Origin: an uncultured delta proteobacterium
GTDB taxonomy: Bacteria; Desulfobacterota; Binatia; UBA9968
NCBI GenBank assembly: GCA_963771465.1
Contig: CAVYTU010000017.1
Location: 384,001 to 448,000 of the forward strand
Length of the DNA stretch: 64,000 bases
Direction of reading: 5' to 3'
Below, piece after piece: positions 55,982 through 60,045 of this stretch; the first letter of the stretch is position 1; each line of letters begins with the position of its first letter. Under the pieces are notes generated by a model. The model saw only the letters and a program-made list of their open reading frames with translations. It made no database searches and was not told the DNA's origin. A program made the translations under genes and the position numbers.

Positions 55982-57076
55982 TTGGCGGTGAGAATTATCG
56001 ACGCTGACACGCATATCGACGAAACCGACGCGACTTGGGAATATATCAAGGGCAACGATCTACAATACAAACCGTCGACGGCTTTTCCTGCCAATCCCGA
56101 TCCTAAACTGCCACCGGCGCGCTACTGGGTGATCGACGGCAAGCGGCAAATCCGTTTCATTCGCAGCGACAAAGATTCAGGCACGACCGTGGACACGCGG
56201 GAGCTGCTCGATGTCAAAGCCCGGCTCAAGCATATGGACGAGCTCGGCACCGACATACAGGTCATCTACCCCACTTTGTTCTTGATGGAGGCCACCGATA
56301 AGCCGGAGATCAACACGGCGATGCGCCGCAGTTATAACCGTTGGTTGGGTGAGCGCTGTATGGAGTCAGGCGGCAGGCTGCGCTGGGTGTGCATGCCGCC
56401 GCTGCAAAACATGGATGCGACGGTGGAAGAGCTGACATGGTCCAAAGAACATGGCGCCTGCGGCGTGCTTAAAAAAGGCGACCGGGAAGCGGGCAAGTAT
56501 CCAGCCGATCCATACTTCGACCAGCTTTATGCCGAAGCGGAGAAGCTTGATCTGCCAATCTGCTTACACACCGGTTCCGGTATCCCAGATTTTTCACCGG
56601 CGCGGGAATTTTCCCATGGCCAATTCATGCGTACCAAAGCCGCCGCAATCAACGGCGTGCTGGGTCTCATCGTGCACAAGATTCCGGATCGGTTCCCCAA
56701 GCTTCGCATCGGTTGCATCGAAGCCGGGTCCATGTGGACGCCATTCGTCGCCTATGATCTACGCCGGCAGCAACTAAGACAGCAGGGACGCGAGGCGGTT
56801 GGCGTACTCGGAATTCCGGAGCTAAAAATCGCTGGCAACGTGTTTCGGGACAATCGAATCTACGTCACTTGCCAAGTCGACGAGGACTTGCCCTATATTA
56901 TCAAAACCGTCGGCGAAGATAACTTGATGGTCGGTTCCGACTACACGCACCGCGATCCGTCGATGGAACTGGAGTTCCGCAAAGTCCTGCAAGAACGCGC
57001 CGACAAAGGCGAGATTCCGCACGGGGTGATTCAGAAAATTCTCTACGATAATCCGAAAACGTTTTACGCGCTGTGA
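55982..57076 (+). CDS. Amidohydrolase_2 family protein
   Basis: AAGGAG + TTG start; IIDADTH, ICLHTG, IEAG, GSDYTH. Confidence 0.9.
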   Translation: MAVRIIDADTHIDETDATWEYIKGNDLQYKPSTAFPANPDPKLPPARYWVIDGKRQIRFIRSDKDSGTTVDTRELLDVKARLKHMDELGTDIQVIYPTLFLMEATDKPEINTAMRRSYNRWLGERCMESGGRLRWVCMPPLQNMDATVEELTWSKEHGACGVLKKGDREAGKYPADPYFDQLYAEAEKLDLPICLHTGSGIPDFSPAREFSHGQFMRTKAAAINGVLGLIVHKIPDRFPKLRIGCIEAGSMWTPFVAYDLRRQQLRQQGREAVGVLGIPELKIAGNVFRDNRIYVTCQVDEDLPYIIKTVGEDNLMVGSDYTHRDPSMELEFRKVLQERADKGEIPHGVIQKILYDNPKTFYAL

Positions 57077-57151
57077 GAGCGTAGATTGCATTGGCAGGTT
57101 CAGTTGCGGTCGTTTATAGTAACGACAAATTAGCTAGGAAGGGGACATTAG

Positions 57152-57703
57152 ATGATTGTTCTCAGTCCGGAAGGAAAGGCGCAGACTTCGGCGGCGAAAG
57201 TCGCTGGGTTGCCGCAGTTCACCGATCTTCGAGGCAAGGTTCTTGGTCTGCTCGATAACAGCAAGCCCAATGCCGACAAGCTGGCGGAGCGTTTCGCCGA
57301 ATTGCTGAAAGAAAAGTACGGCGTTGCCAGCGTGATCACGCGGCGCAAGCTAACGGCACAGCAGGGCGCGCCCAAACAGTACCTCGATGAGTTGGCGGCT
57401 CAGGCGGATATCGTCTTGAGCGGACTGGGCGATTGAGGATCGTGCACGTCGTGGAGTGTCCACGACTCAATCGAGATTCAAAAGCGCGGCCGCTTCGCGG
57501 TCACGCTCATCACCCACGCCTTCGATGCGCTGGCGAAATCCGAGAAGGAAGCCTTCGGCGCGCCGGATCATCCGGTACTGATCGTGCAGCACCCGATCGG
57601 CACGGTGAAAGTGGAAGAAGTGAAAAAGCGCGCCGATGCGGCGTTCGATAAATTGGTGAACATTCTGCTTGCTCCCAAAGCGGCGCGCGCGAAAGTCGCC
57701 TAG
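57152..57703 (+). CDS. UGSC-family selenoprotein (Sec encoded by TGA 57434-57436), 183 aa
   Basis: The ORF track stops at LSGLGD*, but the frame continues GSCTSWSVHDSIEIQKRG...HPIG...AKVA to TAG 57703; UxxC motif; SECIS-like hairpin downstream. Confidence 0.92.
57448..57466 (+). promoter_or_regulatory. Bacterial SECIS-like hairpin
   Basis: GTCGTGGA-GTG-TCCACGAC: perfect 8-bp stem, G-initiated loop, 11 nt after the TGA. Confidence 0.8.
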
Positions 57704-57787
57704 TAAAATCGGTTTTGAGTTTCGGGTTTCGAGTTAGCTAGGAGATTCGAAGCCTGAGTTTTTTCGTTTAATGCCTCGCCCTGGTTT

Positions 57788-57870
57788 CGTCATGCCGGTG
57801 AAAACCGGCATCCAGATTCGGCTTTGAGGTAAACACGAAATACCTGGATCCCGCGTGTGCGGGAATGACG
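57788..57870. repeat. REP-like doublet (GTCAT...ATCCAG / CTGGAT...ATGAC)
   Basis: cgtcatgccggtgaaaaccggcatccag and inverted ctggatcccgcgtgtgcgggaatgacg; a related half copy at about 27230 (ctagataccggcgtccgccggtatgacg). Confidence 0.75.
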
Positions 57871-57913
57871 GAATGCGACCCGACTCGTCGGTAATTTTTG
57901 AAGGGTAGGAATT

Positions 57914-58966
57914 ATGGCAACGGCAGCATTGCAAGCGGAACGGTTTGAGATCCCAGATGACCTCTGGGAGGCGCAGGCTTTTTTCGAGGAGAAGGGCTGG
58001 TCGGATGGGCTGCCGATCATTCCGCCGACTGAAGATCGAGTCGCCAGGATGCTGGCGGCGACCAAGCGTAAGCCGGAAGAAGCCATCGGCGCCGTCCCGC
58101 CGCGCTGGGCGCAGGCGACCGTGGAAAAAATCGCCATCAACGCGGTGATGGCCGGCTGCAAACCGGAATATATGCCGACGTTGATCGCCTGCGTCGAAGC
58201 GATTACCGATCCGAAACTGAATCTCTACGCTCTGCAGGCGACCACTGGCGGGCCGGCGGTGATGATCATCGTCAACGGCCCGATCCGCAAGCAATTGGAC
58301 GTCAACGGCGGTTCTAACGCATTGGGCGAAGGTTGGCGCGCCAACGCGACCATCGGCCGCTTCGTGCAATTGATTAAGCGCAACATCGGCGGCTCGTATC
58401 CGGGGACTACGTGCAAGGCGACGCTGGGCTGGCCGGGAAAATATTCCATCTGCGTCGGCGAGAACGAAGAGGCGAGCCCATGGGCGCCGCTCCATGTCGA
58501 GCGCGGTTTCAAAGCAGATCAGAGCACGGTGACGGCGATCAGCGCGGATGCCTCCGTGCGCGCGTCCGATTTGGATAGCTCCAAGGCTGAAGGCGTGCTC
58601 ATCAACTTTGCGCAGAAAATGGAAGGACCGTCGGGGCCGGAAGCGATCATGGTGATCTGTCCGGAACATGCGAAGATCATCGCCGGTGATGGCTTCAGCA
58701 AGAAAGACGTGCAGAAATTCATCTGGGAACGCGCTGCTTACCGCATGAAAGACTTGCCCGACGAAACTTTTGCCCAGCGCGTCAAGCGCCGTTCGGATTT
58801 GAATCTTACCCGCGACAGCATCATCCCGGTGACTGACAAGCCGGAAGATATTCTTGTCGTCGTCGCCGGCGGCGATGGCTCGCAGTCGCAATATATTCAC
58901 GTCTGGGGACAGAGCACGCCGGAAGGCGGCTCGACGCGCAGTGTCACGAAAGTCATCCGGGATTGA
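57914..58966 (+). CDS. Conserved uncharacterised UGSC-associated protein
   Basis: GWSDGLPIIPPTEDRV, ATVEKIAINAVMAGCKPEY, RANATIGR; I recall this family beside or fused to UGSC domains. Confidence 0.8.
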   Translation: MATAALQAERFEIPDDLWEAQAFFEEKGWSDGLPIIPPTEDRVARMLAATKRKPEEAIGAVPPRWAQATVEKIAINAVMAGCKPEYMPTLIACVEAITDPKLNLYALQATTGGPAVMIIVNGPIRKQLDVNGGSNALGEGWRANATIGRFVQLIKRNIGGSYPGTTCKATLGWPGKYSICVGENEEASPWAPLHVERGFKADQSTVTAISADASVRASDLDSSKAEGVLINFAQKMEGPSGPEAIMVICPEHAKIIAGDGFSKKDVQKFIWERAAYRMKDLPDETFAQRVKRRSDLNLTRDSIIPVTDKPEDILVVVAGGDGSQSQYIHVWGQSTPEGGSTRSVTKVIRD

Positions 58967-59091: not shown

Positions 59092-60045
59092 ATGAAAAGA
59101 CGTTTTCTTGATTTTGTCGAGCTGGCTCCCAGAAGCCAGAAACCGCGCGCAAAGGGTCTCAGCACATTTGGTGACCGGGGCTATCCCCTCGATTGGATTC
59201 GCGGCATGCTCGATGCCTACGGCGACTACATCGACGTCGTCAAATTCACTCCCACATGCCTTCTCGTTCCGTGGGACGACATCGAGAAAAAGGTTAAACT
59301 CTACCGCTCGCACAACGTCGGCGTTGGCAGTGACGATCCAATATTTGCAATTTCCTATTTGCAGGGTAAGGCTGAGGAACTTCTGCGAACACTGCGCGAA
59401 GTTGGATTTACCCATGTGCAGGTCGATACACGTCACGTGGAGACGCCTAACCCCGATGCGGCAAAGAAGGCCGATGAGGACGAACAACGGTACTATGCGC
59501 TGGCTCGTGAATTGAACCTAAAAATCATGGGTGAAATTGGTAAGAAATGGCCCAAGGGCGACCGGATGCGTGCGGGGAAAGGCTCCGTGGATGTTCAAGC
59601 ATCTGTGTCCGATACCAAGCGATTGTTGGCGTTGGGCTGCGAACATGTCTACCTGGAAAGTCGCGTGATTCGCGATGCCATTGGCGACTACGGCGAACGG
59701 CAGGAAGGAACCCGGCAGATAACTGAAATCGTCGAGGCGGTCGGCAGCGAAAAGCTCTTTATCGAAATTTCCGGTCAAATTCCGTTTGACACGCGCCAAT
59801 GCCATCGTTTTTGGGCGGTCAGGAATTTCGGCCCCGAAGTCAACATGGGCGGTGGCGGATCGATCGAGGAGGCTCGCTACGTCGAGGCGATTCGCCGGGG
59901 CATCACGTTCGTTGGCGGCGTGGGCCGGTCGTCGAGCAAATTGTGGATCAAGTCGCTTGCCAACCACGGCGGGAAAGCCGCCGCCGAATGGTGGAAAGAA
60001 GAGTACGAGCTTGATCCATCTTTGATTTCGGCAAGCAAAATTTGA
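59092..60045 (+). CDS. Phosphosulfolactate synthase (ComA)-like protein, divergent
   Basis: KPRAKGL, YIDVVKF, EIGKK, LESR, FGPEVN, VEAIRRG. Confidence 0.75.
   Translation: MKRRFLDFVELAPRSQKPRAKGLSTFGDRGYPLDWIRGMLDAYGDYIDVVKFTPTCLLVPWDDIEKKVKLYRSHNVGVGSDDPIFAISYLQGKAEELLRTLREVGFTHVQVDTRHVETPNPDAAKKADEDEQRYYALARELNLKIMGEIGKKWPKGDRMRAGKGSVDVQASVSDTKRLLALGCEHVYLESRVIRDAIGDYGERQEGTRQITEIVEAVGSEKLFIEISGQIPFDTRQCHRFWAVRNFGPEVNMGGGGSIEEARYVEAIRRGITFVGGVGRSSSKLWIKSLANHGGKAAAEWWKEEYELDPSLISASKI

Follow-up and report, generated by a model that had tools for sequence, protein, structure and literature searches.

The gene at positions 57152-57703 (forward strand) of the window, the whole stretch of 64,000 nucleotides that was analysed, encodes a protein of the UGSC family, and the UGA in its frame is almost certainly decoded as selenocysteine. 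By analogy with known selenoenzymes, we would give even chances to the view that this protein supplies the selenium-bearing catalytic subunit of a reductase made of two parts, the other being the 350-residue product of the neighbouring gene. The frame opens at the ATG at 57152, 7 nt after a purine-rich stretch resembling a ribosome-binding site when the sequence is read directly (57136-57144, forward strand), and runs for 94 codons before meeting TGA as codon 95 (57434-57436, forward strand), after which 88 sense codons lead to a TAG ending at 57703. With the TGA read as Sec, 183 residues are encoded, including the motif U95-G-S-C98. A preliminary description of the locus had claimed this single frame, its length and its UxxC motif, all of which were confirmed, together with the splitting and mistranslation of the gene by automatic annotation: the mechanical ORF list shows only the first 94 residues and, in another frame, an unrelated ORF of 72 residues at 57433-57651.

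The readthrough protein scores 133.5 bits against the NCBIfam model NF041046 (cut-off 125) and 157 bits against Pfam PF24696 (cut-off 25), exceeding the curated cut-off of each along its full length, with its U/C-G-S-C motif sitting at the position of the family motif. Taken separately, the front and rear halves cover NF041046 positions 2-68 and 70-146, respectively, and score 45.8 and 66.3 bits, both below the cut-off of 125. The family shares the U-G-S-C motif and is composed mostly of Sec forms, with some Cys forms, and no family-level difference was seen in the protein studied here. In the available text of PMC1976440, the 2008 GOS paper (PMC2398784, with its supplement 1), PMC9312934 and the 2026 review PMC13188914, the UGSC-containing protein appears among the selenoproteins with no known function; these listings and the two model scores bear out the earlier assignment to a UGSC family whose function is unknown. 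The gene is an ordinary, common member of this catalogued family.

Comparison with homologues, including the Cys homologues whose alignment across the TGA had been proposed as a check, revealed homology on both sides of the codon, with either TGA or Cys at codon 95. At least 604 pattern hits were obtained in assembled genome contigs, and 599 of the 604 matches listed were relatives. Among the best 80 loci of these at least 604 matches, a set biased towards close matches, TGA was found in 85 of 85 hits, and the same TGA recurred across Binatia, Dehalococcoidia and Burkholderiales, while 61 distinct Cys forms carried TGC or TGT at the Sec codon. The closest named relatives belong to Candidatus Binatia or unclassified Deltaproteobacteria, and the sequencing runs sharing at least half of the window's words were soil metagenomes (seven entries). 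UGSC matches were present in 36 of the 41 relative genomes, each listed match spanning residue 95 having one TGA, and in 18 of 151 genomes drawn evenly from the phylum, one of them with 14 hits. Six of the loci (L064, L065, L067, L081, L084 and L113) come from metagenome-assembled records titled Bordetella parapertussis; their UGSC genes resemble environmental Betaproteobacteria loci, and these titles may be loose labels.

The genome also holds the machinery for Sec insertion. The genes selA (C14:197319), selB (C14:198805) and selD (C14:200711) all score above curated cut-offs, selD having its own in-frame TGA, and ARAGORN located a tRNA-Sec(UCA) of 95 nt on C13, so that the search for selA, selB, selC and selD suggested at the outset was answered in full. 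With this machinery present and homologues aligning on either side of the TGA, the two grounds on which the preliminary description allowed its hidden selenoprotein to be doubted have fallen away, and the claim itself is sustained by a readthrough frame that passes the family model, by the Sec genes and by homologues that span the TGA. A contrasting reading, in which the TGA would be a true stop or a sequencing error, the locus then being a pseudogene or a pair of small genes, or else a Trp codon under a changed genetic code, is hardly credible and has already been largely refuted. It can appeal to the W present at the Sec position in several full-length database homologues and to one paralogue on C14 that is broken by frameshifts. 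However, the W entries come from contigs about 1 kb long and would most simply reflect code-4 gene calls, and TGA is the commonest stop in the genome, a normal stop and not a Trp codon, because it ends 1,057 of 2,682 long frames, with tRNA-Sec as the sole UCA tRNA. Moreover, the TGA is fixed across the three groups named above in the best 80 loci. An assembly error is excluded because contigs from independent runs match letter for letter over the TGA: in a comparison of four public runs, one independent contig showed 0 differences over 57270-57544, and two further runs crossed the codon with shorter overhangs and 0 differences.

Eleven nucleotides after the TGA, nucleotides 57448-57455 pair with 57459-57466 to form an 8-bp stem closing a GUG loop (57456-57458), in agreement with the stem and G-led loop reported from the first reading of the sequence. 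This 11-nt distance is the spacing of the upper stem of the E. coli fdhF SECIS. The element (57448-57466, forward strand) is assigned as a bacterial SECIS upper stem-loop on its geometry, energy and codon conservation, the loop G and U being positions 23 and 24 when the U of the UGA is counted as 1. The published bacterial SECIS model, as given in the available text of PMC13188914 (Fig. 2A), calls for a loop of 3-9 nt, a stem of 4-16 bp, a G in the first two loop positions, a spacing of 16-37 nt and a minimum free energy of at most -7.5 kcal/mol. The hairpin falls within every one of these limits, having a stem of 8 bp, a loop that opens with G, a distance of 19 nt between UGA and loop and an energy of -12.5 kcal/mol, the loop being of 3 nt, or of 5 nt if taken as A-G-U-G-U, which fits N1-G-U-N-N2. 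Its folding energy is modest relative to shuffled sequences (z of -2.8 for the 26-nt hairpin and -1.3 to -1.9 for 47-101 nt). In the genome, the same stem-and-loop geometry follows 23 of 213,193 TGA triplets, five of the 23 being UGSC copies, in a scan that was post hoc, its geometry being copied from this very hairpin.

Where the element departs from the bacterial consensus is in being unusually frozen, the same codons being used in paralogues that are only 36-43% identical as proteins. Across 110 distinct TGA-form segments, a set that leaves out the broken copy and any segment truncated at a contig end, this freeze is limited to codons +4 to +10, the flanking codons varying normally. The Ser at +7 is encoded by AGT in all 110 TGA forms, against 10% elsewhere in the same genes, the Ser at +5 by TCG in 107 of 109 (32% elsewhere) and the His by CAC in 106 of 110 (44% elsewhere). 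Seven stem pairs are kept in 110/110, and the two-sided changes seen in the stem were two of G-C to A-U and one of G-C to C-G. As a control, metagenomes were scanned for the Cys version of the peptide, which gave 83 stretches, of which 80 were fetched and 61 were distinct. In these Cys forms, Ser +7 is encoded by AGC in all 25 that retain the Ser, and pairs 18-30 and 21-27 are held in only 36/61 and 42/61, respectively. The stem with its loop G-U is intact in 105/105 TGA forms versus 0/61 Cys forms, the latter figure being due mostly to the loop U and drawn from kin that are not independent, and the mean hairpin energy is -12.6 kcal/mol in TGA forms versus -7.8 kcal/mol in Cys forms. The contrast between the two forms shows, on comparative grounds, that the hairpin is under selection at the RNA level and that this selection is tied to the UGA.

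The partner gene (57914-58966, forward strand; 350 residues), which the preliminary description had passed over, is a more informative part of the locus than the UGSC gene itself. Its product matched no Pfam or NCBIfam family, and its homologues number in the thousands. A UGSC/Unknown_1 fusion with a conserved Cys is drawn in Figure S1A of PMC2398784, in the part of that paper available, and the same A-x-N-A-V-M-A-G-C segment with its conserved Cys is found in the 57914-58966 product, which we call "Unknown_1" on account of this segment. Its conserved residues are D31, N76, C82, T111, N144, R149, C180 and E183. In contrast to that fusion, UGSC and its partner are encoded separately here, with 210 nt between the genes. 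The gap between them contains a dispersed, REP-like inverted-repeat element (57785-57875, no strand assigned; 13 other genomic blastn hits) and a hairpin resembling a terminator, with a run of T after it (57721-57758, forward strand), which is not above chance, three such hairpins being found versus 4.1 expected in shuffles.

The association of the two proteins extends well beyond this locus. In the best 80 loci of the at least 604 matches, the partner is fused to UGSC in 20 of 85 hits, is the next gene downstream within 750 nt in 55 and lies just upstream in one, being fused or adjacent in 76/85; in the other cases it is elsewhere in the locus (three), absent at contig ends (three) or absent despite there being room for it (three). 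It also lies within 1.5 kb of the Cys-form gene in 73 of 80 loci. Fusions of UGSC and partner exist in both domain orders, and partner homologues are fused as well to AhpC/Redoxin or ferredoxin-thioredoxin-reductase beta domains. Four partner homologues (P0197, P0213, P0308 and P0312) are fused to a small C-x-x-C domain without a Pfam hit, which may resemble a NifU-like domain. Another six (P0171, P0173, P0200, P0219, P0260 and P0300), of about 710-740 residues, contain two to four stretches matching the partner, and apparently carry tandem copies of its domain.

Within the genome itself UGSC occurs six times, always with TGA at this codon: in two copies the partner is a separate gene, in three it is fused to UGSC, and one copy is broken. 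The further intact copies (C17:457659-459449, C18:174620-176287, C17:60977-62689 and C11:145089-146810) comprise one split form with its partner adjoining and three fusions. The C11 copy departs from the others in its motif, H-U-S-T-C, and in its hairpin, and the gene after it is thioredoxin-reductase-like (321 bits, cut-off 343). The broken UGSC-partner copy, at C14:928000-929400, has accumulated several frameshifts and stops, with the TGA and the SECIS hairpin retained.

Folded with Cys in place of Sec, the UGSC protein gave a model with a pLDDT of 93.7, in which five strands alternate with helices, no strand hairpin is formed and the UGSC motif spans the junction between the end of strand 3 and the helix after it. 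The model matches flavodoxin-like and Rossmann-like proteins with generic scores, and the predicted fold is a flavodoxin-like (beta/alpha)5 arrangement in which U95 closes strand 3 and C98 falls within the first turn of the helix that follows. The partner model is also confident (pLDDT 95.7), and fold searches with it returned no clear match among solved structures; one candidate relative, considered for both sequence and fold, was the class I fumarate hydratase alpha subunit. The thioredoxin fold combines beta-alpha-beta and beta-beta-alpha units in a core with a strand hairpin. Such a fold was considered for UGSC and rejected on the predicted model, which lacks the hairpin and has all five strands alternating with helices; HHalign of UGSC against a three-sequence Trx-like profile gave 0.5%. 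The predicted fold disagrees with the likely Trx-like fold and role proposed for UGSC in the available text of PMC2398784.

This bears on a second interpretation, which we regard as rather unlikely, that the protein is a true selenoprotein but serves as an electron carrier or as a general thiol/peroxide oxidoreductase, its U-x-x-C pair shuttling electrons and the chemistry taking place on the cysteines of the partner. A UxxC motif is indeed typical of thiol oxidoreductases, and a Trx-like role was assumed in the 2008 paper (PMC2398784, in the text available); C82 and C180 of the partner are present in 106 and 104 of 110 sequences, respectively, and a few fused homologues are without one or both motif cysteines. 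Opposed to it are the lack of thioredoxin topology in the predicted model and the separate Trx-like domains already carried by partners, the presence of which suggests that UGSC is not the carrier. In addition, T99, S100, W101, H104 and D105, which come after the motif, and N36, N40, K66 and H147 of UGSC are kept at 90% or more, which goes beyond what a carrier needs, although the SECIS also constrains part of the segment after the motif.

The catalytic role that we favour derives from a likeness to the selenoprotein B components GrdB and PrdB. HHalign of UGSC with a GrdB C-terminal profile gave 89.9%, placing Sec on Sec over 83 columns, and with a GrdB plus PrdB-like profile 93.0%, again Sec on Sec, over 69 columns, whereas none of seven control families exceeded 1.6% and an eighth reached 37% over 19 columns. 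Masking of the UGSC motif lowered the value to 41.7%, the register being unchanged. When the GrdB/PrdB profile was run on 35,436 six-frame genome segments, two UGSC copies were the top non-members, with non-significant E values of 0.12 and 0.44. The protein had no hit to PF07355, TIGR01918 or TIGR04483 at E 0.01, eleven aligned UGSC members had none to the GrdB/PrdB Pfam family at E 1, and no solved PrdB structure was found for comparison. UGSC resembles GrdB (PF07355, TIGR01918) and PrdB (TIGR04483) in the in-register likeness around Sec, the UxxC-type motif and the larger partner protein, but is much shorter and lies outside their family models. Its partner shows no relation to GrdE/PrdA, the pyruvoyl proprotein of those systems, HHalign giving 0.07% and no PF09338 hit being obtained. 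Given the fall in the masked score, the non-significant E values and a partner that is not of the GrdE type, UGSC may function in the manner of selenoprotein B while standing outside its family.

Systems of that kind are encoded elsewhere in the genome. There are five GrdE-like/GrdB-like pairs (C17:160162-162790, C11:115160-117888, C7:3951-6689, C13:123385-126080 and C15:775527-778182), every GrdB having an in-frame TGA. The match to the C15 copy is broken into three pieces that lie in different frames; three of the four GrdB-like motifs printed have no Cys three residues after Sec. A PrdB-like selenoprotein with the motif U-P-F-C (C15:394265-395059, L245) lacks an adjoining PF09338 gene, and C12:167445-167876 (L251) encodes a GrdA carrying C-x-x-U.

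Taking as template the reaction scheme for PrdB in the available text of PMC3091704, the pathway could be viewed as follows. As in established bacterial Sec decoding, SelB would bind the G-U loop and bring Sec-tRNA to codon 95. By analogy with PrdB and GrdB, the U95 selenolate would then attack a small substrate held at the interface between UGSC and partner, and C98 would resolve the adduct, releasing the substrate and leaving a selenenyl-sulfide, which the conserved cysteines of the partner would re-reduce by relaying electrons from thioredoxin-type donors. A different use of the same residues, in which U95, C98 and the two partner cysteines would bind a metal or iron-sulfur cluster in a carboxylic-acid hydro-lyase or isomerase, seems to us improbable.

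For the reductase that we prefer, our best guess is that the substrate is a small organic acid, or a derivative of an amino acid, imported into the cell. The neighbours recorded in the 80 loci included TctC (27), Amidohydro_2 (16), MmgE/PrpD (12), NMT1-type binding proteins (11) and CoA-transferase III (10), which only hint at a small imported substrate because such families are expanded in these genomes. In the window, a gene of the Amidohydro_2 family (55982-57076, forward strand), kept in close relatives, ends 75 nt upstream of the UGSC gene and possibly shares an operon with it, a link that is weak because the family has about 86 places in the genome. Further downstream, 59092-60045 encodes a ComA-like protein (phosphosulfolactate synthase; 78 bits against TIGR03849, cut-off 280), a divergent paralogue by its sequence score, after which NMT1-type binding proteins are encoded.

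In summary, the preliminary description proved right wherever it could be checked; the gene adds another wrongly annotated member to a family on record since 2007, and its value lies in the handle that it offers. New here are the Cys-form control on the SECIS and the controlled test of the GrdB/PrdB likeness, the former marking, through AGT in Sec forms and AGC in Cys forms, precisely which base of the loop SelB probably recognises. Somewhat short of even chances, UGSC and Unknown_1 would together constitute a widespread, undescribed class of selenium-dependent reductases, with a miniature selenoprotein-B domain, a partner of new fold, no pyruvoyl group, thioredoxin-type donors and up to 14 substrate-specific paralogues per genome. 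With its division into two genes, a fold predicted to be other than thioredoxin-like, a resemblance to GrdB/PrdB and the conserved cysteines of the partner, this locus offers a concrete enzyme for reconstitution.
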